The notes under the pieces are model-generated. The model ran no database searches. It saw nothing but the letters and a program-made list of their open reading frames with translations, and was not told the DNA's origin. A DNA stretch of 64,000 nucleotides, taken from positions 74,322 to 138,321 of the forward strand of contig JAZDOC010000019.1 in assembly GCA_043798935.1 (NCBI GenBank). The letters run 5' to 3'. The first letter of the stretch is position 1, and every line of letters begins with the position of its first letter. The stretch is from Patescibacteria group bacterium. Its GTDB lineage: Bacteria > Patescibacteriota > Patescibacteriia > UBA9570 > JAHJKD01. The position numbers were made by a program, and so were the translations under genes. Shown here in pieces: positions 9,350 to 57,777 of the stretch.

Positions 9350-9373
9350 TGTTTTAATGGGGAGGAATTATTA

Positions 9374-10489: not shown

Positions 10490-10501
10490 TGTTTTTTAAT
10501 T

Positions 10502-21057: not shown

Positions 21058-21059
21058 GG

Positions 21060-21854: not shown

Positions 21855-21863
21855 ATGGATATA

Positions 21864-25072: not shown

Positions 25073-25116
25073 TAATAATGTTATTATTATATCATAATAT
25101 AACCAATTTATGGAAT

Positions 25117-37012: not shown

Positions 37013-38953
37013 TTACCGCGAAAAATACCAATCCAAAACTTCATATACTGCTGGTAAAGCCGCTTCGGTTCCATCGCCACCTTCATCAATAATTGCAGTA
37101 ATTACTATCTCTGGATTATCATACGGAGCAAAGGCTGTAAACCAGGAATGATTTTTCCCATCACCGCCATGTTGGGCTGTACCGGTTTTTGCACCTGAAC
37201 TCACTGACAAATTAGTAAGCGCTTTAGCACTTCCCCATACTGCTGCAGCTTTCATGCCTTGTTTTACAATATTTAAATTTTGTTGATTAACAAAATTACT
37301 ATTTATCACTTGCTCGCCTATCATCTCTTGTACCTCACCAGTTTCATTCACAATTTCTTTTACTAAATGTGGTCGATACAATGTTCCACCATTAGCGATA
37401 ACAGCTGTGTAATCAGCAACTTGTAAAGGCGTTACTAAAATATCACCCTGCCCGATAGATGCATTATAAGTATCGCCAATATACCAATTTTCTGCTTTAA
37501 CGGTTTTCTTCCAGTCTTTAGTCGGCAAAAAACCAGTTTTCTCGCCGGCAATGTCGATACCGGAAATTATATTTAGTCCAAACAATTCGGCATAATGATC
37601 GATTCGCTCAATTCCTAGCCCCCCCGATACTAAATTAGTTGCCGCATCGTAATATCCTCCACCAGCCAAATAGAAAAAAGTATTTACCGATTCTGCAATA
37701 GCTTTAATGACATCTGTTTCTCCGTGTCCGCCAGCCTTCCAATCCGGAAAAAACCACTGATTAACCGGAATCCCTCCCGTACTATTTACGGTAGTATTCT
37801 TAGTAATTACATTTTCTTGTAATGCGGCCGAAGCAACAATCAATTTAAATGTCGAGCCCGACGGATATTCACCTGAAACCGCTTTATTATACAATGGTTT
37901 ATTTGGATCGTTTAATAATTTTTGATATGCATCATAATCAATACCATTAATAAAATCATTACTGTTAAAACCGGGCCAACTAACTAGTGCTAAAACTTCT
38001 CCATTTCTGGGATCAAGTGCTATAAGCGCTCCTCCTTTTGCATCCTGCTCATGGCTATATTTTTCAATCGCCTCGTAAGCCTTCTTTTGTAATTCCAAAT
38101 CAATTGATAGAATTAAATCATCTCCTGGTTCCGGATCTTTTTGAGCAATCACTTTTATCTCATTTCCGGAAGAATCCACTTCAACCTGCTTCTTACCATA
38201 TACTCCTTTTAGTGTAGATTCGTAATACGATTCAATACCAGATTTGCCAATATTATCGCTGTTTAAATATTCACCTTTTTCATATTCTTTAATTTCATCA
38301 ACATTGATTCGTCCGATATAACCCATAGCATGAGACATGGCCAACGGTTCAATGTACTCTCGTTTAGCAACCGGCAAACAATGCACACCTGATAAACTTG
38401 GTTCCAATATCATTAATTTTATAGCTTGATCATACTTTAAATTTGAAGCAATCTCTGTTTCACCCCACAGTGACCCAGCTGCAAGTTTTGATTTAATTTC
38501 ATTAATTTTAATATTTGTAATTGAATTCAATGCTTGAAAAATCTTCTTTTTTTGTTGAGCATCGCTGGGTAAATCGCCTTTTATTATTGTTAATGTAAAA
38601 TCAGGAATATTATTAACCAAAAGATTTCGATTGCGATCATAAATTAAACCACGTGGCGCGGCTATGGTTTCAATTCTAATGCGATTACCTTCAGCAACGC
38701 TCAAGTAATATTCTCCTTTATAAATTTGTAAATAACACAACCGACATAAAACCAAAATTACAACGCCAATAATAATAAATATTGCAATATTTGTTTTCCA
38801 TCGTGAAATAGATAAATTTAAAAATTCATCCTGTTCAATTTTTTTATATCCAATATCTCCAATTACGCTTTTTTTATAATAGATATTTAAATTAGTATCT
38901 TTGACATCGTCACTAAAAAAGAAATTTTTATTTGTGGGAATTTTATTTTTCAT
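37013..38953 (-). CDS. mrdA: penicillin-binding protein 2 (class B PBP, elongasome transpeptidase)
   Basis: 646 aa. N-terminal TM; SxxK (SGSTFK), SxN (ESVN) and KTG (AKTGTA) motifs. Immediately downstream of mreD. Confidence 0.9.
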   Translation of the reverse strand: MKNKIPTNKNFFFSDDVKDTNLNIYYKKSVIGDIGYKKIEQDEFLNLSISRWKTNIAIFIIIGVVILVLCRLCYLQIYKGEYYLSVAEGNRIRIETIAAPRGLIYDRNRNLLVNNIPDFTLTIIKGDLPSDAQQKKKIFQALNSITNIKINEIKSKLAAGSLWGETEIASNLKYDQAIKLMILEPSLSGVHCLPVAKREYIEPLAMSHAMGYIGRINVDEIKEYEKGEYLNSDNIGKSGIESYYESTLKGVYGKKQVEVDSSGNEIKVIAQKDPEPGDDLILSIDLELQKKAYEAIEKYSHEQDAKGGALIALDPRNGEVLALVSWPGFNSNDFINGIDYDAYQKLLNDPNKPLYNKAVSGEYPSGSTFKLIVASAALQENVITKNTTVNSTGGIPVNQWFFPDWKAGGHGETDVIKAIAESVNTFFYLAGGGYYDAATNLVSGGLGIERIDHYAELFGLNIISGIDIAGEKTGFLPTKDWKKTVKAENWYIGDTYNASIGQGDILVTPLQVADYTAVIANGGTLYRPHLVKEIVNETGEVQEMIGEQVINSNFVNQQNLNIVKQGMKAAAVWGSAKALTNLSVSSGAKTGTAQHGGDGKNHSWFTAFAPYDNPEIVITAIIDEGGDGTEAALPAVYEVLDWYFSR

Positions 38954-39452
38954 AAAAAATCATGTGCCGCTTTAAATAATTTCGAATCGAGTAAACAAAA
39001 ACTGTAGCCATTACATTTAACCCGCATTGCCAAAAAATATCAATGAAATAAATATGAAAAATATCGATCCCAAATCGAAATTGTTTTACAATATAGCTTA
39101 AAATTAGTAAATCAAAATTATAAAAAACAATCACTAGAATAATCAGTAATAATATCGACCAGATAGAATTATATGATATTGTGTGCTTAGCTAATAAATA
39201 AACCGTTATAACAGCTAAAAACAAAGATGTTGTAATTAAACCAAAATTCAAACCAGAATATATATCTAAATATATTCCTGATATCAGTGTTAATACTAAA
39301 CCATATGTAAATGAATTATAGAGCATGCAAGCGATGACAAAGGCACTTACCAAGTTCATTTTATTTGCCCATAATCCAACACTACCAAAACTAGTTTGAA
39401 TAATTAATAAACTTATAAAAATTAATAAATATAAAATATTTCGTCGCCACAT
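38943..39452 (-). CDS. mreD: rod shape-determining protein MreD
   Basis: 169-aa polytopic membrane protein between mreC and pbp2. Confidence 0.6.
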   Translation of the reverse strand: MWRRNILYLLIFISLLIIQTSFGSVGLWANKMNLVSAFVIACMLYNSFTYGLVLTLISGIYLDIYSGLNFGLITTSLFLAVITVYLLAKHTISYNSIWSILLLIILVIVFYNFDLLILSYIVKQFRFGIDIFHIYFIDIFWQCGLNVMATVFVYSIRNYLKRHMIFYEK

Positions 39453-39458
39453 ATAAAA

Positions 39459-40256
39459 TTATTTTACAATCGACACTACTGATAAACGACTAAAATCGAT
39501 AAGTGGGATAATATCGGCTTCCTTGAACAAATCGCCAGGTTTTTCTGTAATATTTTCAATTTGACCAATAATTAATCCTTTGGGAATATTATTCTCTATG
39601 CCCGAAGTAATAACAATTGATTTATCAGTAATTTCATCTTGTTTTGGAATTAATTCCATGGCCATACTCAACCCATGCTTCCCTTTTATAATCCCAGGCG
39701 TATTTAACTCGTTTTCAATTTGTGCAGCAATTTCACTAACATTACTAGTAATCAATAAAACTTTAGCAGTATTAGCTGATACTTCGTCTATTTTACCGAT
39801 CAAAACTCCATTTCCAGCGATGACCGGAAAGCCAACTTTAATGCCTACGTTTTCGCCTTGGTTAATGACCACAATTTGCTTGTTCGACCCACTATATTTA
39901 CTAATAATTTTTGCAGTTTGGTATGATAATTGATTATCTTCTAAAAAAGTAATCTGCTGTTTTAAAATTTCATTTTCGTCTATATATGTTTCTAGTTCAG
40001 AATTCTTTTTAACTAAATCATTAACATCTTGTTTAAGCTGATTGTTTTCAGAAATTAATTCATTTTTATCATAGAGCGTTTCACTATCAGATAAATATAT
40101 ACTAAATCGATACAAAGGAACTTGTAAAGGTTTTAATGCGGAAGTCAATAGGCCTTCAACAGGTTTTAAAATATTTATGTAATGTAAAACAATAAACAGT
40201 ATAATGACAACTGAAAAAATGACAATTTTTGCCCAGACTGATCGTTCATTATACAT
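39459..40256 (-). CDS. mreC: rod shape-determining protein MreC
   Basis: 265 aa. N-terminal TM, coiled-coil, C-terminal beta domain. Directly downstream of mreB. Confidence 0.75.
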   Translation of the reverse strand: MYNERSVWAKIVIFSVVIILFIVLHYINILKPVEGLLTSALKPLQVPLYRFSIYLSDSETLYDKNELISENNQLKQDVNDLVKKNSELETYIDENEILKQQITFLEDNQLSYQTAKIISKYSGSNKQIVVINQGENVGIKVGFPVIAGNGVLIGKIDEVSANTAKVLLITSNVSEIAAQIENELNTPGIIKGKHGLSMAMELIPKQDEITDKSIVITSGIENNIPKGLIIGQIENITEKPGDLFKEADIIPLIDFSRLSVVSIVK

Positions 40257-40258
40257 AA

Positions 40259-41311
40259 TTAATCTAAAATATTACCTTCGCTGGTTAAGGACAATGCATT
40301 TTTAAACAATTCCATGTCTTCTAAAACAATTCCGGTTCCTCGAACAACAGCCGTTAATGGATCGTCAACTATTTTTACAGGTACTTGAGTGGCGCGTTCG
40401 ATCCTAATGTCTAACCCGGTTAGCAAGGCTCCGCCACCAGATAAAACCAGTCCTCTTTCAAAAATGTCGGCTACTAATTCGGGAGGTGTAGATTCAATAG
40501 TAGATTTAACATTATCAATAATAGTATTAATTGTTTTATTCATGGCTTCGTGAACATGTTCATTATTGATTGTAATTTCCTTCGGTAAACCAGTTAATAA
40601 GTCTCGACCTTTTGCCGTAGTTTCAATTATTTCAGTTTGTTCAATAACATTTCCAATTTTAATTTTAATATCTTCAGCAGTTCGCTCTCCTATTAATAAA
40701 TTGAATTTATCGCGGCAATAATTAATAATATCCTGATTTAATTCATCTCCGGCTAATCGTAAAGACCGCCAATTAACTACACCACCTAATGAAATTACAG
40801 CAATTTCTGTTGTACCTCCGCCAATATCAATTATCATGTTACCAATCGATTCCTGTACTGGCAGCCTGGCGCCAATCGCTGCGGCCATGGGTTCTTCGAT
40901 TAAAAAAACTTGTCGGGCACCGGCGTTTAAAGCTGCGTCTTCAGCGGCTTTTCTTTCGACTTCGGTAACGCCAAGCGGAATTGCCATAACTACTCGCGGA
41001 CGCGGTAAAAAATTTGCTGATTCGCGATGTACCTTTTCGATAAAATGTTTCATCATTTTTTCAGCAGCTTCAAAATCTGAAACCACGCCGTCGGCTAAAG
41101 GTTTAATAGCCACAATATATGGGGGTGTTTTACCAATCATTTTTCTAGCTTCTTCCCCCACTGCTAAAATTTGATCAGTTCGCTGATTAATTGCCACAAT
41201 AGACGGTTCATTAATAACAATACCACGATCTTTTGTGTAAACCAAAGTATTGGCCGTTCCTAAATCAATACCCAAATCTTTTGAAAATCTGCCTAAGAAA
41301 CCTTTAAACAT
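40259..41311 (-). CDS. mreB: rod shape-determining protein MreB (actin homolog)
   Basis: 350 aa with the actin-fold phosphate-1 block GIDLGTANTLVY. Its 5' end overlaps the proS stop by 19 nt. Confidence 0.95.
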   Translation of the reverse strand: MFKGFLGRFSKDLGIDLGTANTLVYTKDRGIVINEPSIVAINQRTDQILAVGEEARKMIGKTPPYIVAIKPLADGVVSDFEAAEKMMKHFIEKVHRESANFLPRPRVVMAIPLGVTEVERKAAEDAALNAGARQVFLIEEPMAAAIGARLPVQESIGNMIIDIGGGTTEIAVISLGGVVNWRSLRLAGDELNQDIINYCRDKFNLLIGERTAEDIKIKIGNVIEQTEIIETTAKGRDLLTGLPKEITINNEHVHEAMNKTINTIIDNVKSTIESTPPELVADIFERGLVLSGGGALLTGLDIRIERATQVPVKIVDDPLTAVVRGTGIVLEDMELFKNALSLTSEGNILD

Positions 41312-45825: not shown

Positions 45826-46818
45826 TTATAAATTATTTATTATTAAATTTTCAAACCACAATTTATAATTTTTATTTACACTCTGTGATCGGGTTTTTTC
45901 TAACAAAGAAATCATATTATTAATTTTAGAGTTAGAGTATTTTTCCGATACGGCTTGAATTTTCTGATTAGCGAAATAATTTATTATTAAATCTGCTTGA
46001 TTATTTTTTTGAAGTAATAAGTCGCGCCACAAACTGATCCAAGTATTAATTAAATTTACAGCTTGAGTGGCTTCAATTTTTTTATATTTAATTTCAAACA
46101 TTTTTAATTTTGCCGTACAATTATTTTTCTCTAATAAACTTAATGTCCATTGTATAAGTTCTTCATAATCAACTAATTTATTTTTTTTGGTGAAAAAATC
46201 TTGCATCACGAGTGGTAAACCATTTGCCAAACGACATAAAGTTTCTAATTGACTTTCATCATAAATATCTTTTTTCAATGCAACGAATATATCCTTTTTA
46301 GCTACTGGTAAAAATTTTATTATCTGACAGCGAGAAATTATAGTTAGCGGTAAAGAATTGAAATTTTCAGCGAGCAATATAATAATTTGCTTTTTCCCAG
46401 GTTCTTCCAAAGTTTTTAAAATTGCATTAGCGGCTTGAATATTAATATTGTGTGCTTGTCTGATAATTACTATTTGCCATGAATTTCCAAATGATTTTCG
46501 GCTTAACTCTTTAATAATGCTTCGAACTTGTTCAATGCCGATATTTTGAGTTTTACGGTTTTTTAAAGGTTCAATAATATGAAAATGGGGATGAATATTT
46601 TTTTTAAACTGTCGGCAATTAATGCATTTACCACATGGTTTCTTCTCATCTTTACCATTGCATAATATAATATTGGCAAATTGCTTGGCCAGCTTAAACT
46701 TCCCTAAATTTTTCAAACCCACAAAAACATAAGCATGGCTTATTTTACCAGATTCTATCTGTTTTTGCAAGTATGTTCGTTGTTTAAAATGACCAATTAA
46801 ATCCCATTTATATTTCAT
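45826..46818 (-). CDS. holB: DNA polymerase III delta' subunit
   Basis: 330 aa. AAA+ clamp-loader fold with a degenerate P-loop (HAYVFVGLKNLGKFKLA) and a Zn module CGKCINC. Overlaps the GT4 stop by 4 nt. Confidence 0.75.
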   Translation of the reverse strand: MKYKWDLIGHFKQRTYLQKQIESGKISHAYVFVGLKNLGKFKLAKQFANIILCNGKDEKKPCGKCINCRQFKKNIHPHFHIIEPLKNRKTQNIGIEQVRSIIKELSRKSFGNSWQIVIIRQAHNINIQAANAILKTLEEPGKKQIIILLAENFNSLPLTIISRCQIIKFLPVAKKDIFVALKKDIYDESQLETLCRLANGLPLVMQDFFTKKNKLVDYEELIQWTLSLLEKNNCTAKLKMFEIKYKKIEATQAVNLINTWISLWRDLLLQKNNQADLIINYFANQKIQAVSEKYSNSKINNMISLLEKTRSQSVNKNYKLWFENLIINNL

Positions 46819-48029
46819 AAAAATTTTTCAATGCACTGCCAAGTTTCTTGGGCACATTTTTGATAAGAATATTTTTTTACTATTTGCTGTCCATTTTTAA
46901 CATTTATTTGTTTATTAAAGTTATCATTAATGGTTTCATTAATAACTTGGGCTATTTCATTCGGATTATTTGGATCAAAATAATTTACAGAATTACCAGC
47001 AATTTCAATTAATGGCTCTATATTAGAGCACACTACTGGCGTACCCGCGGCCAATGCTTCAAGCACTGGAATGCCAAACCCCTCATAAAATGACGGCAAA
47101 ACAAATAAATCCGCCAAATTCATAATTGTGTTCATGTCTTTTTGATCCACGTATCCTGGTTCAATAATCTGATCTTTTAACTTTAATTCAAATATTTTTG
47201 CTTCAATGTCTTCATATCCGTACCCGATTGACCCCAGAAGCACCAAATAATGCGGTTGCTTATATTTTTCAACAAACAATTTATATGCCGAAACAAGATT
47301 GACCAAATTTTTCTTTTGCTCCAGGCGCCCCGTAAATAAAATATAAGGAGTTTTTATTTTATATTTTTCTAAAATAGAACAATATTTTTCTGATGTTTTG
47401 TTTTGGAATCGGAAAAATGAATGCTTATCGAAACCATTATATACAACAGTAATGTTTTGTTTTGGACATCTGTAAAATTCGTGTATTTCTTTTTTGGAAA
47501 AATTTGAAACTGTAATAATCTGAGTAGCGTGCTTAACGGCATAGCGCATAGCCCAACGATGGTAATCAAGTTCGGAAATATTATATTGTCCTAGCGTTGC
47601 AATGCGCACTAATAATTTTAAAATATTTTTCAAAAAAGAATTATTTTTTATAACATCTTTTTGTTCATACAAATTTTTCATTCGCTCAAATCCAATATCA
47701 TGAGCCACTAAAATTGTTCGGCGAGGATGAATCAGTGGAATGGTATGAGCCGGCACAAAAAGCAATTTTGGCCTTGACCAAAATTTTAGCATTTCAATCG
47801 ATAAGCGAATTTGCGTCCATAAAAATTTAGGTGGCCATGTTAAAACTGCGCTACTCCAATTAACTGGTAATTCTTCCAAACCATTACGCAATGGTTCTTT
47901 GGAGTATAAAACTACTTTATAATTTGAAGGTATTGTTTTTTTTAACTCTTGAATCAAAAAAAATGAGTACCACTCGGTACCGGTTTTCTTTTCTAAATTT
48001 GCTCTGGAGGCATCAATGCCTATTAACAT
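46815..48029 (-). CDS. family-4 glycosyltransferase (GT-B)
   Basis: 404 aa with the GT4 C-terminal block EGFGIPVLEALAAGTPVVCS. Confidence 0.8.
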   Translation of the reverse strand: MLIGIDASRANLEKKTGTEWYSFFLIQELKKTIPSNYKVVLYSKEPLRNGLEELPVNWSSAVLTWPPKFLWTQIRLSIEMLKFWSRPKLLFVPAHTIPLIHPRRTILVAHDIGFERMKNLYEQKDVIKNNSFLKNILKLLVRIATLGQYNISELDYHRWAMRYAVKHATQIITVSNFSKKEIHEFYRCPKQNITVVYNGFDKHSFFRFQNKTSEKYCSILEKYKIKTPYILFTGRLEQKKNLVNLVSAYKLFVEKYKQPHYLVLLGSIGYGYEDIEAKIFELKLKDQIIEPGYVDQKDMNTIMNLADLFVLPSFYEGFGIPVLEALAAGTPVVCSNIEPLIEIAGNSVNYFDPNNPNEIAQVINETINDNFNKQINVKNGQQIVKKYSYQKCAQETWQCIEKFL

Positions 48030-48030
48030 G

Positions 48031-49038
48031 TTATTTTGTAGATAATAAAGATCTTTTATAGGATTCCAAATTTTCTAAAGCCACGCCCGTACCTTTAACA
48101 ACGTTTTGTAGGGGTTCATCGGCTAAATAAGCTGGAACATCTATTTCGCGAGATAATAACTCGTCTAGATTTCGAAGTTGGCCTGAACCACCGGAAATAA
48201 CCATGCCTTTATCGATAACATCAGCTGATAATTCAGGCGGTGTCTCTTGCAGGACTGATTTTACAGCTTGAATAATGCCATTTAAATCATCTTGGATGGC
48301 CTCAGTGATATCGTCTGACGTTACAGTTACTGTTCGTGGTAATCCGGAAATAATGTCACGCCCACGGACTTCCATAGATAACGGATCACTTAGTGGAAGT
48401 GCTGAACCAATTTTAATTTTTAATTCTTCAGCGGATCGCTCACCGATCGCTAAATTATATTTTTTTCTCACAAATTCAGAAATAGCATAATCAAATTTTG
48501 TTCCTCCAATTCTAACCGAAGTATTAGCCACGATTCCACCTAATGAAATTACCGCAATTTCTGATGTGCCACCACCAATTTCAATTATCATATGTCCTGA
48601 AGCACTGCCAATTGGAATATTTGCCCCGATGGCTGAAGCAATAGGTTGTTTTATAATAAACGCAGCTTTAGCGCCAGCTTGGATTGTCGCATCGATAACA
48701 GCTCTTCTTTCGGTGGATGTGATCCCCGCTGGTACAGCAATCATTACTTCGGGTTTTAAAATTCTAATTCCACCCAATGCTTTATTAATAAAATAACGCA
48801 ACATACTTTCAGTAGTACGATAATCAGCTATCACGCCGTCTTTTAAAGGACGCGATGCAATAATAGTATCTGGTGTGCGACCAAGCATATCACGAGCCTC
48901 GTTACCCACAGCCAATACCTTACGGTCCTGAATTGAAACCGCCACTACTGATGGCTCGTTAATGGCAATGCCACGCTTAGGTACATAAACTAATGTATTA
49001 ACCGTACCTAAATCTATACCAATTTTCTTAACAAACAT
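48031..49038 (-). CDS. second MreB/Mbl-family actin homolog embedded in the glycan operon
   Basis: 335 aa. GIDLGTVNTLVYV plus all actin-fold blocks. About 55% identical to MreB at 40259..41311 by eye. Confidence 0.85.
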   Translation of the reverse strand: MFVKKIGIDLGTVNTLVYVPKRGIAINEPSVVAVSIQDRKVLAVGNEARDMLGRTPDTIIASRPLKDGVIADYRTTESMLRYFINKALGGIRILKPEVMIAVPAGITSTERRAVIDATIQAGAKAAFIIKQPIASAIGANIPIGSASGHMIIEIGGGTSEIAVISLGGIVANTSVRIGGTKFDYAISEFVRKKYNLAIGERSAEELKIKIGSALPLSDPLSMEVRGRDIISGLPRTVTVTSDDITEAIQDDLNGIIQAVKSVLQETPPELSADVIDKGMVISGGSGQLRNLDELLSREIDVPAYLADEPLQNVVKGTGVALENLESYKRSLLSTK

Positions 49039-49039
49039 G

Positions 49040-50995
49040 CTATTTTAATTGAATTTTTATGCTTTTATCTGTGCGTAAATCTCCACTCAGTTGCACTTTA
49101 TTATTATCCATTTCAGCATTTAAGTCAAGAGCACTAATTTCTTTAATAGATTGCCCAATGTCAAAATTTATTGTTAATCCATGATTTAAAGTACCCGCTT
49201 GTTTCTGGATATATAATTGATATTCATTATTTGAAATTAAATTTTTAATTTCTAACGGCAATTTATAAGTTAAAACAATCTGCTCCTGTGCTTTTGGCTC
49301 AATTGCAATAAAACCTTCAAACACAGTTTTGTTTAATTCCTCATCTTGTTTGACCAAAGCCGCGGTAGGAGTGCCTCCTTTTAATTTATCGTTCGTCATG
49401 AAACCGGTGGATGATATTAATTCACTCCCCAGCGGCACATAAATTCTGGCATAGCTTCGATAACGCGTTGTGGTATTAGAAAAAGTTCCATTATTCTGAT
49501 ACGTTGCTGTTAATGTTGCAATCAAATCCTCGCCATTCTTACTTAATTTATAATCTATTGATCGATCCATTACTTTATCTGTTTTTAATGCTGCCATATT
49601 ACTATCGACGAGCATTATAAAATCTTCGCCTGTATATTCTTGATCACGAACACTGCCGTCCCACTTTAAAGTCGTAATATATTTCTGCACTTCTTCATTC
49701 TTAAAAGATAATAAAATATGTTTCTCATTAGCATCTTGATTAATCATGTTCCAAACATCTCCCCACTTCTCTTTGGGTAAATTTAATATTCGATCCATGA
49801 GTATAGTTGCCAATTCGCTGATAATGTCTTTTCTTTCAGCATCTGACTCGCCCGCAGCTTGATATCTAAATTCTACCCGTTGCTGTAATTTGTCGATAAA
49901 ATTCTCCTCATTATATTCCTCTCCTTCGATTTCTATAGCACCGGTTAATTTAACCAGAGACAAAATAAATTCCGGATCGACAGCAATCACCGCGTCTATA
50001 TTCTGTTCAGCACCATTTTCTAAGTGATATAATTCTTCAGTTTTATTGGCTGAAGTCGGAAAATCTGGCGACCAATTAGCATCACGCATGTACATGGCTT
50101 TAGCATCAACATATTTCGCAAATTCATCTTGTGGTGGTAAAAATAAAAACTGCTCAGCTGGCCCATCCAGATTATAAATATTATCAGTATCAAAATAACT
50201 TATTTCAGCCGAATCAAATTTTAAAATTCCGTAAGTTCCAACAAATCCGCCAGTTGCGCGTAGCTCAGTATTATTTTGCAATAAAAATAAATAAGTAGTT
50301 TCATCTGGATAACCTAATGCACTTGGCAAAACTTCAACTAATGGTAAGGCTTTAGAAGTTAATTCTTTAATTAAAGGTAAATTATCGTTAATTGGTGCCA
50401 AAGCATCTCGCAAAGGCTTTACAAGTCCTTTTTCCGGAATTTGTTCCAAATCGAATAGGGCTAAATTTAATTTATCCGTTGATTGCTTAATAGTATCGGG
50501 TGAATTGTAAAGTTTTTCAAGAATCTGTCTTTTCTTGGCTTTACTAATCGAATTAAATGTTGTTTCTGCCCCATCAAGCTTCAAAATATTAGCAATATCT
50601 TCACCAAGCAAAGATAAGTCTTCAAGTCCATCTGCAATACTAATACCTGCCAATAATAAATGATTAACAGCCATAAATTGCTTACCTGCAAAGGGTGCGC
50701 TTTCTACCCAGCTGTATTTTTCCATAATCTGGCTAGCGGTTGAAAAATGCTCTGCAGCCTGATTCAGTTCGGTAGCCATCATCGCAAAATTTTGCTCTTT
50801 AATGGCTTGTTGAGCATTAGTAAAATTATTCTTGCCATCTATTGCTTCTTGATATAAAGAATTAAAATTTTTGTAATTCAATAAACCAAAAATTAATATT
50901 ATTAAAACTATTACGCCAACAATAATACTTATAACTTTTAAGCTCTTCTTTAATTTATAATGTTTATTTGCTTTTTTATCAATTGTTAATTTCAT
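49040..50995 (-). CDS. large membrane-anchored extracytoplasmic protein, DUF4012-like (tentative)
   Basis: 651 aa. Single N-terminal TM, long alpha-helical N-region, beta-rich C-region. Sits in the GT operon. Confidence 0.4.
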   Translation of the reverse strand: MKLTIDKKANKHYKLKKSLKVISIIVGVIVLIILIFGLLNYKNFNSLYQEAIDGKNNFTNAQQAIKEQNFAMMATELNQAAEHFSTASQIMEKYSWVESAPFAGKQFMAVNHLLLAGISIADGLEDLSLLGEDIANILKLDGAETTFNSISKAKKRQILEKLYNSPDTIKQSTDKLNLALFDLEQIPEKGLVKPLRDALAPINDNLPLIKELTSKALPLVEVLPSALGYPDETTYLFLLQNNTELRATGGFVGTYGILKFDSAEISYFDTDNIYNLDGPAEQFLFLPPQDEFAKYVDAKAMYMRDANWSPDFPTSANKTEELYHLENGAEQNIDAVIAVDPEFILSLVKLTGAIEIEGEEYNEENFIDKLQQRVEFRYQAAGESDAERKDIISELATILMDRILNLPKEKWGDVWNMINQDANEKHILLSFKNEEVQKYITTLKWDGSVRDQEYTGEDFIMLVDSNMAALKTDKVMDRSIDYKLSKNGEDLIATLTATYQNNGTFSNTTTRYRSYARIYVPLGSELISSTGFMTNDKLKGGTPTAALVKQDEELNKTVFEGFIAIEPKAQEQIVLTYKLPLEIKNLISNNEYQLYIQKQAGTLNHGLTINFDIGQSIKEISALDLNAEMDNNKVQLSGDLRTDKSIKIQLK

Positions 50996-51804
50996 TTTTT
51001 TTTATTTAGTTGTCTTTTTTTAGATAAATATTTAAGCCAATCTTTGATGTGAATTCGAGTAATGTAATTAAACAAACTTCCAAAACCTCCCCAAATACTT
51101 TTTTGCGCCGATTCGCGTTTATGATAATGAATGATCTTTGTATCATGATAATAATAAACTTTATAACCATTAGCACTGGCCCGATCGCATAATTCATAAT
51201 CAGCAAAGTACAGAAAAAAAATTTCATCAAACGCGCCGTATTTTTCAATAAACTTTTTTCTCAGTAACATGCATGCTCCTAAAATCCATTCCACGACAAT
51301 CGTTTCATTATGATTAAAATCGTTCATGAGATGATTATTTAAATCTCGCTTGGCAAATTTTAGCTTTCCCAACGGAGTACGTCGCCAAATTGGCGTAAAC
51401 AATGAATAGGAACGATAGCAAGATCTCTGGACACTACCATCACCATTTAAAAGCCTTGGGCCAACAATAGCAACTTTTGATTGCTGATCCATAAACTTCA
51501 GCAAATTTGATAAATCTTCACTGTTTTTAAAAATTATATCAGTATTAAGAATTAAAATATATTCCCCCTGCGCTTGTTTAATACCTAAATTATTACCTCG
51601 TGCATGCCCGCAGTTTATTTTGGATACAATTAATTTTATTTGCGGAAATTTTTCTTTCATCATATCCACTGAATCATCAACTGACGCATTGTCAACAACA
51701 ATTATTTCATAGGGAAAATCTAATTTTAAGGCAATTAAATTCTGCAAACATAAACGTAGCAAATTTTGAGTATTATAGTTTAAAATAATTATTGATAACT
51801 TCAT
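50992..51804 (-). CDS. family-2 glycosyltransferase
   Basis: 270 aa. N-terminal GT2 block LSIIILNYNTQNLL...IIVVDNASVDDS. Confidence 0.8.
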   Translation of the reverse strand: MKLSIIILNYNTQNLLRLCLQNLIALKLDFPYEIIVVDNASVDDSVDMMKEKFPQIKLIVSKINCGHARGNNLGIKQAQGEYILILNTDIIFKNSEDLSNLLKFMDQQSKVAIVGPRLLNGDGSVQRSCYRSYSLFTPIWRRTPLGKLKFAKRDLNNHLMNDFNHNETIVVEWILGACMLLRKKFIEKYGAFDEIFFLYFADYELCDRASANGYKVYYYHDTKIIHYHKRESAQKSIWGGFGSLFNYITRIHIKDWLKYLSKKRQLNKKK

Positions 51805-52742
51805 ATCTTTTTACTATCGTGAATAAATTTTCTTTTTAATAAAATACGTTTTATATTATTAGGTTCAGATTTCAGACAATACATAAAAGTATTTAATTCG
51901 AATATCAAAACATAAATTAATTTAATAGATTCATAACCCAGAATAAAGGGCCAATCTAAAATTGTTTTTAAGGTAAATTCATTTTTCATTAGCACCCACC
52001 AGTGGTTACGATAACTCATGGCCTTAATTACTCTATTTTGCAAAGAACGATTTTTAAATGAACTCTTTTGAACAGATCTTTTGTGCCAAGCCATAGCCAT
52101 GGGTTCGTACCATATCTTCCATCCCGAAGTGTTTAAACGATAAGAAAGATCTATGTCTTCCTTATAGGCTACAAATTGTTCATCAAAATATTCATTTTCA
52201 AATTTAATACTTTCTAAAGCGTCGCGTTTCACTAAAAAAAGCGCTCCGGAAACGCCAAATATTTGCTGGTCTTTATTGTATTGGCTCAAATCTTTTTTAT
52301 TTTCGCCAATGTTTATATACTTTCGAAAAATATTTTTTTCTAAACCAACTCCGTCAAATATATCAGTTTTCTTAGTGTCAGTCAATCTATATACTTTTCC
52401 GGTCACAGCACCTATTTGAGGACTAACGCTTATTCGCTCGACTAATTTTGCAACACACTCTTTATGTAAGACAACATCGTCGTTTAGAATAAATATATAT
52501 TTACCGCTGGCCAAATTAATACCGATATTATTGCCTTTAGCAAACCAATAATTTTCTGAATTTTCTTTAATAATTGCCGTGGGACAAATTTGTTTGGCTA
52601 TCATAACGGTAGCATCTTGGGAAGCATTATCAACAATAATAATTTCTAGATTTTGATATGACTGAACTTTAATGGATTCAAGCACACCAGAAATATTTTC
52701 AGCGCTATTATAAGTTAAAATAACAATTGATACTTTTTCCAT
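51801..52742 (-). CDS. family-2 glycosyltransferase
   Basis: 313 aa. VSIVILTYNSAENI...IIIVDNASQDAT. Confidence 0.8.
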   Translation of the reverse strand: MEKVSIVILTYNSAENISGVLESIKVQSYQNLEIIIVDNASQDATVMIAKQICPTAIIKENSENYWFAKGNNIGINLASGKYIFILNDDVVLHKECVAKLVERISVSPQIGAVTGKVYRLTDTKKTDIFDGVGLEKNIFRKYINIGENKKDLSQYNKDQQIFGVSGALFLVKRDALESIKFENEYFDEQFVAYKEDIDLSYRLNTSGWKIWYEPMAMAWHKRSVQKSSFKNRSLQNRVIKAMSYRNHWWVLMKNEFTLKTILDWPFILGYESIKLIYVLIFELNTFMYCLKSEPNNIKRILLKRKFIHDSKKI

Positions 52743-52744
52743 TT

Positions 52745-54232
52745 TTATTTATCTAGTGAATAAAACTGACCAACTAATAATATCCAACCGATACCGAGCG
52801 GATGATTTAAATAAGGCGTTAAAAAATGAATTGCAATTAATGCGACAAGACCTAAAAGCGAACCAAAATAAATAAACTTCCAATCGATGTTATTTTCATT
52901 CATAGTATGTTTTAAACCACTAGAAAAGATTTTCCAGAGCAACAAAACATAAACAATAAATCCAATCAAGCCTAATTTCAACCATAAATCTAAATAGCCC
53001 CATTCAAAAGCATAAGTAGTATAATTCCCATCAAAATTAGATTTCATAGCCCGTGGATCTTGAGATTTATAAGTTACTGTGGTGCCAAAACCACCACCCA
53101 TAAACCAATTCTCAAAATTTTTAGTTAGAAGCGGCTTTAATAGCTCTATTCGAGAGGACCCAGCCGCTTCTTGAGTTGGATCTTTTGTGCGCTCACTAAT
53201 TAAACTCATGGCATTTACTTTGCTATTTCCAGGGAGAGGAAAATTTACAATTCCCAAGGCTAACCCATAATCAATAATAAATATTAAACCCACAACTAAT
53301 AATATTGTGGCAATTTTTTTATATTTAATTTTTAATAAAAACAACGCACTAAAACCATATACAACTAAAGATCCTAGCACTGCTACCCAAAAACTACGTG
53401 AATAACTCGTAAATATAATTAATATCGATAAACAAAAACCCAGATAAAAAAGCTTATTTTGTTTAATGTTTAATTCTTGTTTTTTATATAAAGTAATGGC
53501 TGACAATCCTAAAAAAAATATAAAAATAGAATATAAATGACTTTGAAAAAAGATCCGATAAAAATCGTTGTCCATTCTAACAATTTCACCAACTCCGCTT
53601 CGCCGCACCCATTGGTAAACACCGGCAACATAATAATAAAAAATATTTTGTTGCGAAAAAATAAATAGTAACAAAATAGTTTTAATAAAGCTGGTCAAAG
53701 TTGCCGCTAGCATTACCTGTAAGGAATTTAAAAATTTATTTTTATCATTTATAATCTGCGTGATTGGCAGAATTAACCCAAAAAATAAATATCCATTGGC
53801 ATCAAAAAAAATATTTTTTAATTCATTGTTTTTCGCGTAACCAATTATTACAGCCGTAATTAAAAAAAAGAATAATGCTAGATAATAATTTTTAAATTTA
53901 TTTTGAAAAAATAAAATCTTTCTTTGGCGAATAATCCAAATGAAATAAGCAACAAAAACTGCCAAAAACAAACCTAAACGCAGAGAAACGGAAAAATTAT
54001 TGATATTAAAAAACAATAAATAGCCTTTAGAGCCGATTACTAATTCAGCCAGTATTATATATATCCCCCACTCTAAATTTTTTAAAGACAATAAAAAACA
54101 AATGATTATTACAATCCCGAAAAATAATTGATTTAGAGTAATATTATCTAGCACTATCCAAGATAATAATTCAATAATTATAATTGCTAGAAATGTAATT
54201 TTAAATAAACGGCTAAAAAAAAGATTTTTCAT
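52745..54232 (-). CDS. O-antigen ligase/Wzy-like polysaccharide polymerase (polytopic membrane protein)
   Basis: 495 aa with about 12 TM helices and a large periplasmic loop. Positioned among GT genes and the flippase. Confidence 0.6.
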   Translation of the reverse strand: MKNLFFSRLFKITFLAIIIIELLSWIVLDNITLNQLFFGIVIIICFLLSLKNLEWGIYIILAELVIGSKGYLLFFNINNFSVSLRLGLFLAVFVAYFIWIIRQRKILFFQNKFKNYYLALFFFLITAVIIGYAKNNELKNIFFDANGYLFFGLILPITQIINDKNKFLNSLQVMLAATLTSFIKTILLLFIFSQQNIFYYYVAGVYQWVRRSGVGEIVRMDNDFYRIFFQSHLYSIFIFFLGLSAITLYKKQELNIKQNKLFYLGFCLSILIIFTSYSRSFWVAVLGSLVVYGFSALFLLKIKYKKIATILLVVGLIFIIDYGLALGIVNFPLPGNSKVNAMSLISERTKDPTQEAAGSSRIELLKPLLTKNFENWFMGGGFGTTVTYKSQDPRAMKSNFDGNYTTYAFEWGYLDLWLKLGLIGFIVYVLLLWKIFSSGLKHTMNENNIDWKFIYFGSLLGLVALIAIHFLTPYLNHPLGIGWILLVGQFYSLDK

Positions 54233-55092
54233 TTATGTTTATAATTTTTCAAAACACGCGCAAAAATTAAACTAATCGCTTGTGCGCTACTGATAATCAG
54301 ATAGCTGAATAAATTATGTTGCTTCTTAAAAAAGTATCGCATACTACGCATAAACATCATCTGTTTTTCGAAAGTAAGAATTTGTGAAAAACTAACCGCT
54401 TTTACATGGTGGCAACTAACAAGCGGTGTATAATAAATTTTGTATCCAGCTTGGCGCATTCTAATTTGTAAATCTACTTCTTCAAACCAAATAAAAAAAT
54501 TTTCATCAAAATTACCAACATGTTCTAAAACAGATCGCGTCGTAAGCATAAATGCACCCATTACCTGCTCTACCATTTGCTCTTTAGAATAATTAAAACT
54601 ATGCTGTTCATAATTTTTAAGCAAACTCGGCCACAAATGATGTAATTTGGATATTATAATAAGTTGGTTGATTAAATTAGGATCACGCCTGACGCTTAAT
54701 TGCAAACTACCATCGGAGTTTAATAATTTACACGCTAAAATGCCTATTTTATTATCGTGCCGATTAAGCATTTTGAATTCGTTTAATAGTATAAAAAAAA
54801 TATTTCCAAATATTTCTGTATCATCATTTAAAAATAAAATATATTTTCCCTGGACTTTTTTCAGTGCCTGGTTGTTTGCTTTGGCAAAACCCAAATTTTT
54901 TTTATTGTTAATAACTTTTACTTGGGGAAAATCTTTTTCAATCATGTTCAAACTGCCATCATTAGAGGCATTATCAACCACTAAAACTTCGAATTTGAAG
55001 TTTTTTAAATTTGTGAATACAAAAATTGATTTTAAACACTTAAATAAGTACTTTTTAGCATTCCAAGAAACGATGACAATTGATAAATCCAT
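54229..55092 (-). CDS. family-2 glycosyltransferase
   Basis: 287 aa. LSIVIVSWNAKKYL...VLVVDNASNDGS. Confidence 0.8.
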   Translation of the reverse strand: MDLSIVIVSWNAKKYLFKCLKSIFVFTNLKNFKFEVLVVDNASNDGSLNMIEKDFPQVKVINNKKNLGFAKANNQALKKVQGKYILFLNDDTEIFGNIFFILLNEFKMLNRHDNKIGILACKLLNSDGSLQLSVRRDPNLINQLIIISKLHHLWPSLLKNYEQHSFNYSKEQMVEQVMGAFMLTTRSVLEHVGNFDENFFIWFEEVDLQIRMRQAGYKIYYTPLVSCHHVKAVSFSQILTFEKQMMFMRSMRYFFKKQHNLFSYLIISSAQAISLIFARVLKNYKHK

Positions 55093-55167
55093 ATGTATAA
55101 AATACCAAAAAAATCAAAAAAAATCAATCCTTTTTGGATTAACACTTTTAACTTCGCAAAACAACAA

Positions 55168-56241
55168 TTATAATAAAATATTTTGTAATTGCTGGGCTTT
55201 AGCTTTCAAATTAAATTCCTGATCAACTCTAATTTTACCTTGATAGCCCATTTTATGCGCCATGTCTTTATTAGTGATCAAGCGCACAACAGCCTGGCAG
55301 ATCATAGAGGTGTTTTCCGGCTCGACTAGAAAACCAGTATATCCATCGACGACGGCATCGGTTACTCCGCCGCTCTGACCACCGATTACCGGCTTTTCAA
55401 ACGAATTGGCTTCTAAATAAACAATGCCAAAGCCTTCTACATCACGATTAGGCATTTCGCGTGGCACCATAATAAAAACATCAGCTATAGCATAATAACT
55501 AGCGGTTTTTTGATCTGATAATTCTCCGGTAAAAATAACTTGTTTATCCAAATTAAGTTTTGAAACAAGTTTTTTTAATTGATTTTTGTAATTACCGTCA
55601 CCAACGATAATATATTGTAAATTTGGAATTTCTTTTAATATTTCGGGCAAAGCTTTAATAACCATATCATGGCCTTTTCGCTGAACTAACCGCCCCACAG
55701 TAAGTAGTACGGGCTTATGCTTTTTACAACACTCTTTAATTGCTTCCGGATATTTGCTGGGTACAATATTTGGGACCGGAAAAATAATCTCAATTTTCCT
55801 TTGATATCGACTACTAATTAATTTTAAAATTTCAAATTTAGTGTATGTTGAAATGGTAATTATTTTTTTAGCTTCAACTAGTATTTTCTTCATTAGCCAT
55901 TGTTTACGACGGTACTGCTTAACATAAGTTACTTCCATGGCCATAATGAAAACCACATAAGGAATTTTTAACCATTTTGATAAAAGCCAAACCACTGTTC
56001 CAAGCGGTAGAATTTGGCCGACCATAATTATTTCGATATCATTTTCTTTAACAAATTTTTTGATAGTAAAAAAACTTTTAATCCATCCTAAAAAAGGTAT
56101 CCGCCAAAGTAATTTATTTTTTTCATTGGTTAAAACTAAAATTTTTTCTGCCGGCAAATTATTAACTAAATTACTATAATAATGAGCCACACCCCCTATT
56201 TGCGGTGGATATTCTAGTGTCACTAATAAACTTTTTTTCAT
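55168..56241 (-). CDS. family-4 glycosyltransferase (GT-B)
   Basis: 357 aa. EGFGIVYLEANSFEKPVIGG...GFLVEP. Confidence 0.8.
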   Translation of the reverse strand: MKKSLLVTLEYPPQIGGVAHYYSNLVNNLPAEKILVLTNEKNKLLWRIPFLGWIKSFFTIKKFVKENDIEIIMVGQILPLGTVVWLLSKWLKIPYVVFIMAMEVTYVKQYRRKQWLMKKILVEAKKIITISTYTKFEILKLISSRYQRKIEIIFPVPNIVPSKYPEAIKECCKKHKPVLLTVGRLVQRKGHDMVIKALPEILKEIPNLQYIIVGDGNYKNQLKKLVSKLNLDKQVIFTGELSDQKTASYYAIADVFIMVPREMPNRDVEGFGIVYLEANSFEKPVIGGQSGGVTDAVVDGYTGFLVEPENTSMICQAVVRLITNKDMAHKMGYQGKIRVDQEFNLKAKAQQLQNILL

Positions 56242-57732
56242 TTATTTATTTTTTACGGCCTGAATAAAAGATTTAAACTCGCTTTTAGTTAATCCGCGTG
56301 TAATAAAAAGAAAAGTGCCATAAACTAAAATACCAGTAATAATTAATAAAATCAATTGTAAGCTTGAACTTAGGATATTGTATTTTTCTAAATATATTCT
56401 TAACCCATAGACCGATACACCCATTATTAAACTAGCCGTAAAAATACTTAAAAAACGTTTAATTAAATAACGATAATCAAATTTGATCATTTTGTAAACC
56501 CACGGCAAACCTAAACATACTAGTACAGTAGAGCTAGATAAAGCACTGATACAAGCGCCGACGATATTGTAATAGCGGATTAAAAAATAATTTAATGTAA
56601 TATTAATAATCAAAGCTATGCCGGTGTTAATAGTATTTAAAACTTGCTTATTGGCCGCGTTTAAAAAATTACCTACTGGATAATTTAAAAAAATAAATAA
56701 TAATGCCACAATATAAATTCTTAAAGGTGTAATAGATTCAGTAAAAGATTCGCTCCAAACAGTTAGAATAATTTTATCGGCCAAAACTAATACTCCGGCC
56801 ATTATCGGTAAACTAAGAAGCATCATATACGATATTCCGTTTTCAAAAATGGTTTTAACTTTTGAAATATCGCGTTTAATATAATAACTAATTGATGGGA
56901 AATAACTGCTTGCAAAAGCACCCGATAACACAGTTAACGCTAATGTTAATTTAAACGCCAAGGCATACAAACCAGCATAATGATTTCCATCCTTTAAAAT
57001 ATATTTTAACATCAACATATCAACAGTACCGTTTAAACGTACAAAAATTCCAGCTACGGCAAATGGCGCAGCAATAATAAAAATCTTTTTAAAATCAATA
57101 TAATTATATGCCCCCTTAATAATGATGTTTGTTTTCTTTTTAATTAAAATTAAAAAATACACAAAGCTAAAAGAACTGCCCAAAAAAAGTACTACTAATA
57201 AAAAGAAAACTGATTGTGTGTATATCAAACCATACAAGCCCACACAAAAAATAATACCTTGATAAATTAATACATTAATTGCTTCGTATTGTAAATTTTT
57301 TAAGGCTCGAAACACGCAAAAAAAAGTAAATATCAGTGTGTCTAATAGAATTACAAATGTTCCAATATAAATTAAAAACAAGTCTTCGTTGGTATAATTC
57401 TCAGGTTTAAAATAATGCAAAAGATTTGCTACTGTTACTAAGCCTACTATGGTTGAAATAATTAACACTATTTTTAAGCCTAAAATTTTACTAAATAAAT
57501 TTGGGAGATTCTCTTCTTCTTTAGCCGCTTCGCGGGTAAGCACTGGCCCTAAACCAAAATCCATGAAAACAATAAAAATGCCGGTGAAACTTAACACGGC
57601 CTGATATTGCCCTAAAGCATCGGTACCTAAAATTTTAGCTAAAAATGCAAAGTAGATGAATGACAATGCTTTTTGAAAAATAGACGCAATTGTTAGATAT
57701 GTTGTATTCTGCGTTATTTTTGAAGATTCCAT
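56242..57732 (-). CDS. Wzx-type oligosaccharide flippase (MOP superfamily)
   Basis: 496 aa with about 14 TM helices. First gene of the glycan operon, directly after a terminator. Confidence 0.75.
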   Translation of the reverse strand: MESSKITQNTTYLTIASIFQKALSFIYFAFLAKILGTDALGQYQAVLSFTGIFIVFMDFGLGPVLTREAAKEEENLPNLFSKILGLKIVLIISTIVGLVTVANLLHYFKPENYTNEDLFLIYIGTFVILLDTLIFTFFCVFRALKNLQYEAINVLIYQGIIFCVGLYGLIYTQSVFFLLVVLFLGSSFSFVYFLILIKKKTNIIIKGAYNYIDFKKIFIIAAPFAVAGIFVRLNGTVDMLMLKYILKDGNHYAGLYALAFKLTLALTVLSGAFASSYFPSISYYIKRDISKVKTIFENGISYMMLLSLPIMAGVLVLADKIILTVWSESFTESITPLRIYIVALLFIFLNYPVGNFLNAANKQVLNTINTGIALIINITLNYFLIRYYNIVGACISALSSSTVLVCLGLPWVYKMIKFDYRYLIKRFLSIFTASLIMGVSVYGLRIYLEKYNILSSSLQLILLIITGILVYGTFLFITRGLTKSEFKSFIQAVKNK

Positions 57733-57777
57733 AAAAAAATAAATCCCTCTTTATAAAAATATAAAAGGGGATGTTTT
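57733..57777 (-). terminator. putative rho-independent terminator after rpsI
   Basis: On the - strand, ATCCCCTTTTAT-ATTTTT-ATAAAGAGGGAT is an imperfect hairpin followed by a T-run just before the wzx ATG. Confidence 0.35.

Follow-up and report, generated by a model that had tools for sequence, protein, structure and literature searches.

A second MreB paralogue encoded within a conserved glycan gene cluster of Patescibacteria

A 64,000-nucleotide stretch of a Patescibacteria genome (contig JAZDOC010000019.1; the whole stretch is hereafter called the window) encodes two homologues of the bacterial actin MreB. One of them, MreB1, belongs to a canonical elongasome locus with MreC, MreD and a class B penicillin-binding protein (PBP2). 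The other, MreB2, is encoded in a minus-strand cluster of glycan genes, between the gene of a large DUF4012 protein and a glycosyltransferase gene. Our preferred reading is that MreB2 may be an ancient, slowly evolving paralogue specialised for the assembly of a wall glycopolymer, while MreB1 would run the peptidoglycan elongasome. Judged from sequences and gene order, we give this reading a probability of roughly 45%.

MreB paralogues are usually viewed as redundant guides of peptidoglycan synthesis, and the genetics of Bacillus subtilis has recently hinted that its paralogue Mbl is tied to teichoic acids. In a very large radiation of uncultivated bacteria, the wiring of one MreB clade into a wall-glycan cluster, and of the other with mreCD-pbp2, supports, independently and from evolution, the idea that actin paralogues divide their tasks. 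What appears to be new is the reciprocal genomic coupling of MreB2 to a module of DUF4012, family 4 glycosyltransferase (GT4), Wzy_C and TagA genes, which reaches into Chloroflexota. In the literature on DUF4012 and on MreB in the context of the candidate phyla radiation (CPR) or the envelope, we found no link of an MreB paralogue to DUF4012 or to a glycan cluster.

Two MreB paralogues and their gene neighbourhoods

Encoded at 48031..49038 (minus strand), MreB2 is a protein of 335 residues which matches the MreB family models clearly above their cut-offs: 431.4 bits for Pfam MreB_Mbl PF06723 (cut-off 27), 445.2 for NF010539 (293) and 434 for TIGR00904 (365.75). Residues 3-329 align with the Geobacillus MreB structure 7ZPT at 378 bits. 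The MreBH model NF010540 scores 379.9 bits with MreB2 and 409.5 with MreB1, both under its cut-off of 515. Identity between the two paralogues of the window is 46%. The earlier note on this DNA had placed a separate canonical mreBCD-pbp2 locus at 37013..41311, and this locus is indeed present, 6.7 kb downstream of MreB2 and on the same strand. It consists of MreB1 (40259-41311; 485 bits in NCBIfam), MreC (39459-40256; Pfam, 123 bits), a weakly matching MreD (38943-39452; Pfam, 20.1 bits, under the cut-off of 24) and the class B PBP (pbp2; 37013-38953), recognised from its translation. The order mreB-mreC-mreD is found for MreB1 only; MreB2 is flanked by DUF4012 and by the glycosyltransferase GT4a instead.

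A neighbour-joining (NJ) tree was computed from 70 MreB2 and 31 MreB1 sequences of related loci, with E. coli MreB as outgroup, and each paralogue is monophyletic in it. Within the same 31 genomes, mean pairwise identity is 78.5% among MreB2 proteins and 68.1% among MreB1 proteins. Mean identity between MreB1 and MreB2 is 47.8%, and E. coli MreB shares 48.9% with MreB2 and 51.1% with MreB1. From these identities and the monophyly of both groups we conclude that the duplication is ancient and that MreB2 is the more constrained copy. A recent duplication or horizontal transfer of MreB2 is rejected, since the paralogues (46-48% identical) are about as distant from each other as from E. coli MreB. 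The phylogeny thus yields two old and separate clades, and not a recent duplicate at random locations. One study of horizontal transfer lists MreB as 'exclusively transferred among Patescibacteria' (PMC12455944); a protein as conserved as MreB2, with a mean identity of 76-78% in the species sampled, might yield such a signal with no transfer at all. In our representative library, one protein of 1010 residues (P0121) was considered as a DUF4012-MreB fusion and rejected. It joins an N-terminal Ser/Thr protein kinase to two tandem MreB domains, an unusual architecture bearing no relation to the present one.

The two clades differ at 20 discriminating positions, for example a lysine in place of glutamate at E. 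coli position 142 in 67 of the 70 MreB2 sequences. Position 297 is serine or threonine, not glycine, in 68/70. MreB1 carries an N-terminal extension (MFKGFLGRFSKD) which resembles the amphipathic helix of E. coli MreB (MLKKFRGMFSND). This extension is absent from MreB2, which begins at the first β-strand (MFVKKIGIDLG); membrane binding of MreB2 would therefore need a hydrophobic-loop mode. The phosphate-1 motif (D-L-G-T), the catalytic glutamate before proline, the phosphate-2 motif (D-x-G-G-G-T) and the adenosine motif (G-G) are present in all 70 MreB2 sequences, some with substitutions. Catalytic E143 (E. coli numbering) is kept in 61/70 and the phosphate-2 residue D165 in 60/70. The MreB2 of the window and eight close relatives (L001, L002, L003, L005, L006, L011, L014 and L026) combine E143Q with D165E, which are Q131 and E153 in the protein itself; L059 has D165E alone. 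Glutamine also stands at position 143 in 7 of 31 MreB1 sequences, and actin carries glutamine at the equivalent position. These substitutions may slow ATP hydrolysis.

The linkage of MreB2 to its neighbours was assessed in two sets. A DUF4012 profile gave 80 loci from different GTDB species, including Kerfeldbacteria, Falkowbacteria, Uhrbacteria, Buchananbacteria and one Microgenomatus; reciprocally, 80 metagenome contigs were retrieved by MreB2 alone. In the first set the gene after DUF4012 is MreB2 in 69/80 loci, and in the second in 50/55. The MreB2 proteins of the GTDB loci are 67-88% identical to the copy in the window, the DUF4012 proteins just 32-44%. Many loci retain the full order Wzx-GT4b-...-GT2c-Wzy-GT2b-GT2a-DUF4012-MreB2-GT4a-holB, followed about 5 kb further on by MreB1-MreC-...-PBP2. 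Viewed from MreB2, a full-length hidden Markov model (HMM) recognises DUF4012 upstream in 50 of 74 informative metagenome contigs and Pfam in 41 of 72, the latter count being lower because some open reading frames (ORFs) are truncated at contig ends. Downstream of MreB2, 53/71 contigs encode either GT4 (49/71) or Wzy_C (4/71). Most of the relatives sampled encode a second MreB.

Two reference pairs calibrate these counts. MreB1 is followed by MreC, its functional partner, in 29/29 GTDB loci and 10/12 metagenome contigs. The unrelated pair GT4a-holB, which serves as a synteny baseline, is adjacent in 36/55 and 19/44 (43-65%). Adjacency of DUF4012 to MreB2 reaches 86-91% and that of MreB2 to GT4a 74-78% (52/67 and 53/72), so that the linkages of MreB2 are nearer to the level of a functional pair than to the baseline. 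Among the genes downstream, GT4a stays with MreB2 most persistently. The note had put forward as a check whether MreB2, DUF4012 and GT genes remain linked in related genomes, and the outcome is strongly positive from either anchor.

In loci devoid of DUF4012, MreB2 still adjoins glycan genes. The variants comprise MreB2-Wzy_C-holB with a PIG-L deacetylase or DUF3326 gene upstream, GT2a-MreB2, and mreB1CD-pbp2-greA-MreB2-GT4-...-GT4-GT4-GT4-DUF4012. At one locus with an otherwise intact cluster (L097, 7205-7992), two short ORFs of 141 and 121 residues between GT2a and MreB2 match the DUF4012 profile and apparently derive from a decayed or split gene.

Deeper relatives were collected by searching 1.84 billion cluster representatives exhaustively with HMMER. 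The nearest non-orthologous MreB2-like proteins are 50-58% identical, and NJ places them as successive sisters of the MreB2 clade before MreB1 joins. A low-GC genome shows the order murA-MreB2like-holB-frr-rseP-MreB1like. In three separate 50%-identity clusters, an MreB2-like gene followed by WecG/TagA stands after a divergent PEGA-domain gene. Two contigs of 66-67% GC, in a lineage whose contigs have 64-67% GC, encode the full order atpGDC-murA-MreB-GT4-GT4-polysaccharide deacetylase-WecG/TagA-GT2-GT2; an NCBI protein named 'Chloroflexi bacterium' is a member of the high-GC MreB cluster. The atp-murA-mreB order at this Chloroflexota locus presumably recalls the Firmicute atp-murAA...mbl region. 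Thus this type of MreB stays beside genes for lipid-linked wall precursors or glycopolymers in lineages whose other neighbours differ, and this is the strongest argument for a functional association.

Two side observations concern these deeper loci. The divergent PEGA-domain proteins measure about 400 residues (L165 512-1717, L169 4673-5878, L171 249-1397), and PEGA surface protein, MreB and TagA may form a conserved module. WecG/TagA lies directly beside the MreB2-like gene in L165, L169, L171, L162 and L167.

The glycan gene cluster and the DUF4012 protein

The ten-gene minus-strand cluster described in the earlier note (46815-57732, with holB from 45826) is reproduced by the ORF map in coordinates, order and gaps, and each family call is backed by Pfam, marginally so for Wzy_C. 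In the direction of transcription the genes encode a Wzx-like flippase of the MOP family (56242..57732, 496 residues; Polysacc_synt PF01943, 94.9 bits; PF13440, 50.5), the glycosyltransferase GT4b (55168..56241, 357 residues; Glycos_transf_1, 144.8 bits), GT2c (54229..55092, 287 residues; Glycos_transf_2, 78.7 bits), and a polytopic protein of the Wzy_C O-antigen polymerase/ligase family (52745..54232, 495 residues; PF04932, 35.1 bits, cut-off 31.7). They continue with GT2b (51801..52742, 313 residues; Glycos_transf_2, 96.3 bits), GT2a (50992..51804, 270 residues; Glycos_transf_2, 83.8 bits), the DUF4012 protein (49040..50995, 651 residues; 109.5 bits), MreB2, GT4a (46815..48029, 404 residues; Glycos_transf_1, 113.1 bits) and holB, the δ′ subunit of DNA polymerase III (45826..46818; DNA_pol3_delta2, 164.9 bits). 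Successive gaps from wzx to holB are 0, 75, -4, 2, -4, -4, 1, 1 and -4 nt.

The claim of an 11-kb translationally coupled operon stands in part. The gaps are as tight as described, but the cluster is not a discrete unit: it lies inside an array of 28 consecutive minus-strand genes (32536-60692) with gaps of at most 75 nt, its end at holB is arbitrary, and a terminator-like hairpin occupies the 75-nt gap. The array runs from rpsK through the glycan genes, holB, frr, rseP, proS, mreBCD-pbp2, greA and lysS to serS, in a window of about 31% GC. It contains longer overlaps between proS and mreB1 (19 nt) and between mreD and pbp2 (11 nt), and Shine-Dalgarno-like sequences are not evident 5′ of most starts.

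Within the 45-nt gap after rpsI (57733..57777, minus strand), a hairpin (ΔG -11.4 kcal/mol, z -3.1) is followed by a U-run, UUUAUUUUUUU; it probably bounds the glycan genes on their 5′ side and is plausibly a terminator. A weaker hairpin with U8 (ΔG -14.6, z -2.1) occupies the 75 nt between GT4b and GT2c (55093..55167, minus strand), as a possible weak terminator or attenuator at a junction between modules. Additional genes are frequently inserted at this GT4b-GT2c junction in relatives. Wzx is followed by GT4b in 18/18 related loci, GT2c by Wzy in 28/32 and GT2a by DUF4012 in 60/62. Taken together, spacing, hairpins and insertions delimit a conserved core, GT2c-Wzy-GT2b-GT2a-DUF4012-MreB2-GT4a. 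Scans for σ70 promoters and for terminators returned counts not clearly above shuffled expectation (13 and 17 terminator-like sites per region, where chance gives about 9 ± 3), and every such site listed falls within coding sequence, so the informative terminator evidence is confined to the manually folded intergenic hairpins. The terminator scan detected no intergenic site in the GT4a-to-pbp2 interval, and a strong promoter-like site (11/12 matches) precedes greA. The core may be co-transcribed onward through the housekeeping genes up to mreBCD-pbp2. A terminator-like hairpin with a T-run at 47966-47981 (minus strand), 50 nt past the MreB2 stop and within the 5′ coding end of GT4a, may be due to chance.

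Five soluble-type glycosyltransferases (three GT2 and two GT4), a MOP flippase and a Wzy_C protein make up a set of parts which fits a Wzx/Wzy-type scheme. The note's assignment to this type is only partly demonstrated: the flippase is there, and the cluster contains neither an initiating phosphoglycosyl transferase nor a Wzz-type co-polymerase. The priming gene may lie elsewhere in the genome. Partial NCBIfam similarities of the cluster enzymes are to teichuronic-acid and exopolysaccharide (EPS) types (TuaB, TuaC, TuaG and EpsD/E), all far under cut-off. For the flippase, the NCBIfam MOP, MurJ and TuaB matches are likewise under cut-off; a weak resemblance to Pfam MurJ (37 bits) makes a role as lipid II flippase possible. 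The Wzy_C protein has no match in the NCBIfam scan, and the Wzy_C domain is common to polymerases, WaaL O-antigen ligases and PglL O-oligosaccharyltransferases. Outside the cluster and 22 kb away, a glycosyltransferase of the WecG/TagA/CpsF family is encoded at 25078..25806 on the plus strand (Glyco_tran_WecG, 132.8 bits). WecG/TagA-type enzymes are second-step enzymes which build the linkage unit of wall-attached polymers.

Across species, the degree of conservation of the cluster proteins is close to that of MreC, PBP2 and holB, which indicates a conserved envelope glycan as the product and not a variable antigen. A hypervariable O-antigen or capsule island was rejected on the same ground, order and sequences being kept across genera and candidate phyla. 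The product is probably a core envelope glycan, whose acceptor may be peptidoglycan, protein or lipid.

The DUF4012 protein matches its family (PF13196) with 109.5 bits over residues 232-373, against a cut-off of 28, and its sequence is 100% identical to an NCBI protein from a 'Patescibacteria group bacterium' MAG. At least 738 homologues reach E ≤ 1e-3 among the candidates scored, and all specific taxon labels listed for them are Patescibacteria or CPR. An AlphaFold2 (AF2) model built from an 80-sequence alignment (pLDDT 90.4, pTM 0.86) predicts a basic N-terminal tail, one transmembrane (TM) helix at about residues 20-40, a helical stalk (41-226), an α/β domain containing the Pfam DUF4012 region (233-440) and C-terminal β-sandwiches (458-650). 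The note had called the protein a large, anchored, extracytoplasmic one, and the model agrees with a membrane anchor and a mostly extracytoplasmic chain. Comparison with the PDB returned no convincing relative. Among the 80 homologues, 49 columns are invariant and mostly polar or charged, among them E244, R246, D277, R304, N307, W308, R388, K389, D458, D464, N466, K471, D473, R511, R517, E566, K598 and Q599. Such a pattern suggests that the protein has a site for catalysis or for binding a ligand and is more than a passive scaffold. Tails ahead of the predicted TM helix range from 0 to 86 residues (median 28; about 17-68 in clean gene calls), with a mean net charge of +5.7. The protein occupies the place of a Wzz or LytR-CpsA-Psr (LCP) protein, but it has a single TM helix and no detectable similarity. 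A DUF4012 gene has been described in the EPS/capsular polysaccharide (CPS) cluster of Bifidobacterium longum 105-A, beside a priming glycosyltransferase and Wzz, and enrichment of the family has been noted for CPR, Firmicutes, Actinobacteria and Chloroflexi (PMC5412050, PMC6744442).

Elsewhere in the window, an AMMECR1 gene (20521-21057), a LigB/Memo-like gene (21060-21854) and a radical-SAM gene (23286-24302), with two Pfam-less ORFs between, form a minus-strand set (20521-24302) which resembles the conserved AMMECR1-Memo-radical SAM trio. On the plus strand, two tandem DUF3048 paralogues of 371 residues each precede a 1009-residue S8 subtilase with Big_1 and fibronectin type III domains (8234-13531), an arrangement suggestive of a protease module that is secreted or exposed at the surface. 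The lysyl-tRNA synthetase ORF (34359-36413, minus strand; 684 residues) has a C-terminal extension of about 190 residues which, by eye, resembles an HD-type phosphohydrolase.

Competing explanations for MreB2

If MreB2 is specialised for a wall glycopolymer, the following sequence of events can be proposed. MreB2 would polymerise at the cytoplasmic face of the membrane and would scaffold the peripheral GT-B/GT-A enzymes (GT4a, the GT2 enzymes and a TagA-type enzyme) that make an undecaprenyl-linked repeat unit. This unit would be flipped by the MOP flippase and then polymerised or ligated by the Wzy_C protein. The bitopic DUF4012 protein would handle the glycan outside the membrane, where it might act as an enzyme or bind substrate while the polymer is assembled or attached. 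Glycopolymer insertion could thus be kept in register with new peptidoglycan. Gene content, paralogy, conserved linkage, sequence features and the architecture of DUF4012 are established here; how the proteins would touch one another, which glycan is made and where it goes, and how the two MreB proteins would share the work are inferences from them. The idea already raised in the note, that a dedicated cytoskeletal element organises glycan export in space, is likewise what the gene neighbourhood suggests.

The chief rival, a real if somewhat doubtful possibility, holds that MreB2 is a generic second isoform in the same elongasome as MreB1, providing redundancy or tuning, and that its position in the cluster reflects historical synteny in compact CPR genomes. 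Several observations count against a specialised MreB2 or favour this rival. Gene neighbourhood is the one kind of evidence that connects MreB2 to a glycan. Both paralogues are equally canonical: MreB1 also aligns with 7ZPT at about 378 bits and, like MreB2, exceeds the NCBIfam MreB cut-offs, so that MreB2 bears no sequence mark of a role outside the elongasome. The two genes are 6.7 kb apart on one strand with no intergenic terminator detected between them, and in some lineages MreB2 directly follows pbp2-greA. These genomes are compact and highly syntenic, as the 28 co-directional genes with gaps of at most 75 nt illustrate. The unrelated genes holB, frr and rseP have likewise long been neighbours and, since the adjacency of holB is itself fairly conserved (43-65%), synteny inertia explains part of the signal. 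About one third of MreB2 genes have no upstream DUF4012, and some DUF4012 clusters have no MreB2. The cytoplasmic tails of the DUF4012 proteins were examined for a conserved motif that could bind MreB, and the idea was rejected, as they share none; being variable and merely basic, they argue against a specific, conserved direct contact with MreB2. Lastly, the NJ trees carry no bootstrap values. On the other side, DUF4012-MreB2 and MreB2-GT4 adjacency both exceed the GT4a-holB baseline. Moreover, where neighbours are replaced, the replacements are other glycan genes (Wzy_C, TagA/WecG, GT4), also in the distant high-GC Chloroflexota lineage. The clade's own sequence signature and its lack of the N-terminal membrane-binding extension imply functional divergence.

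A quite improbable alternative is that the cluster makes a lipid-linked oligosaccharide which the Wzy_C protein, acting as a PglL/WaaL-type transferase, would move onto S-layer or pilin proteins or onto lipid; MreB2 would then position this machine or be unrelated to it. The Wzy_C domain has several roles and its match here is marginal (35.1 against 31.7). A Pfam scan of the window, covering nearly all ORFs of at least 110 residues, found no initiating phosphoglycosyl transferase (Bac_transf, or Glycos_transf_4 of the MraY/WecA type), no Wzz co-polymerase and no LCP ligase (LytR_cpsA_psr), which speaks for this alternative as well as against a wall glycopolymer. In three lineages, genes for surface proteins with a PEGA domain lie next to MreB2-like genes and are transcribed divergently from them. 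The TagA/WecG and murA neighbours in related lineages, however, indicate peptidoglycan-linked polymer chemistry, and the partial similarities to TuaB, TuaC, TuaG and EpsD/E, albeit under cut-off, point the same way. Least probable, in our view, is a role of MreB2 outside envelope synthesis, in division, chromosome or plasmid positioning, or motility. MreB or actin paralogues have been repurposed elsewhere (Chlamydia, Spiroplasma, Myxococcus), CPR genomes are reduced, the replication gene holB is a frequent neighbour, and E143Q with D165E may change ATPase kinetics in the subclade of the window. Yet MreB2 is very highly conserved relative to canonical MreB, its neighbours are overwhelmingly envelope-glycan genes, and the catalytic residues are kept in most of the clade.

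The reading of MreB2 as specialised for a wall glycopolymer can be carried further, into a form we consider unlikely as it stands. A second 'glycopolymer elongasome', consisting of MreB2, a DUF4012 protein with a new fold and an MreC-like or enzymatic function, and GT4/TagA-type enzymes, would direct an essential wall polymer in parallel to MreB1-MreCD-PBP2. It would be ancestral to the CPR-Chloroflexota branch of Terrabacteria, and the teichoic-acid-specific role of Bacillus Mbl would be a remnant of that old sharing of tasks between MreB paralogues. For the more modest reading, DUF4012, GT4 and TagA/WecG are named as candidate partners of MreB2. The widespread DUF4012 family thereby gains a testable context, and tests of the idea need not stay within CPR but could use, for instance, Chloroflexota or heterologous reconstitution. 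These ultra-small bacteria are also suggested to build a conserved and probably essential wall polymer.

Comparison with known systems

The closest analogue of MreB2 appears to be Mbl of B. subtilis. In both cases a monoderm has two canonical MreB paralogues, one associated with mreCD and the other tied to a wall glycopolymer, here by gene context. For Mbl the tie is genetic: mbl, and not mreB, interacts with the genes for synthesis and attachment of wall and lipoteichoic acids (WTA/LTA), and loss of these genes suppresses the essentiality of mbl but not that of mreB (Koo et al. 2025, PMC12716459). While mbl lies outside the tag and tua operons, MreB2 is adjacent, at the level of the operon, to DUF4012, GT4, Wzy_C and TagA genes.

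MurG, MraY and TagO associate with MreB. The LCP proteins TagT/U/V were discovered as MreB partners (Kawai et al. 2011, as cited in PMC7831098), and the proposed role of MreB2 shares with that system an MreB filament as cytoplasmic organiser of membrane-bound glycopolymer enzymes. It differs in that no LCP gene was found in the cluster or the window, and the neighbour of MreB2 is an uncharacterised extracytoplasmic DUF4012 protein.

The teichuronic acid operon of B. subtilis, tuaABCDEFGH, directs a Wzx/Wzy-dependent wall polymer. It resembles the present cluster in its types of MOP flippase (TuaB-like), GT4 (TuaC-like), GT2 (TuaG-like) and Wzy-family polymerase, by weak NCBIfam matches. In contrast to that operon, the cluster lacks a TuaA-type priming transferase, the TuaD dehydrogenase and TuaF/Wzz, and contains MreB2 and DUF4012. 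The EPS/CPS cluster of B. longum 105-A likewise places DUF4012 among surface-polysaccharide genes; there the protein is termed an 'auxiliary protein' and MreB is not mentioned.

For CPR, MreB proteins have been assigned to two clades, with some species holding both and different roles suggested (Takahashi et al. 2020, bioRxiv 10.1101/2020.05.13.095042). Our NJ trees also give two monophyletic clades; that paper contains no genomic context, sequence signature, functional proposal or link to DUF4012 or glycosyltransferases. Finally, the pairing of MreB2 with DUF4012 recalls that of MreB with MreC, where an actin homologue is encoded beside a bitopic N-in protein with a coiled-coil or helical stalk and extracytoplasmic β-rich domains. 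No similarity in sequence or fold between DUF4012 and MreC was detected, and the gene order is reversed, DUF4012 lying upstream of its MreB.

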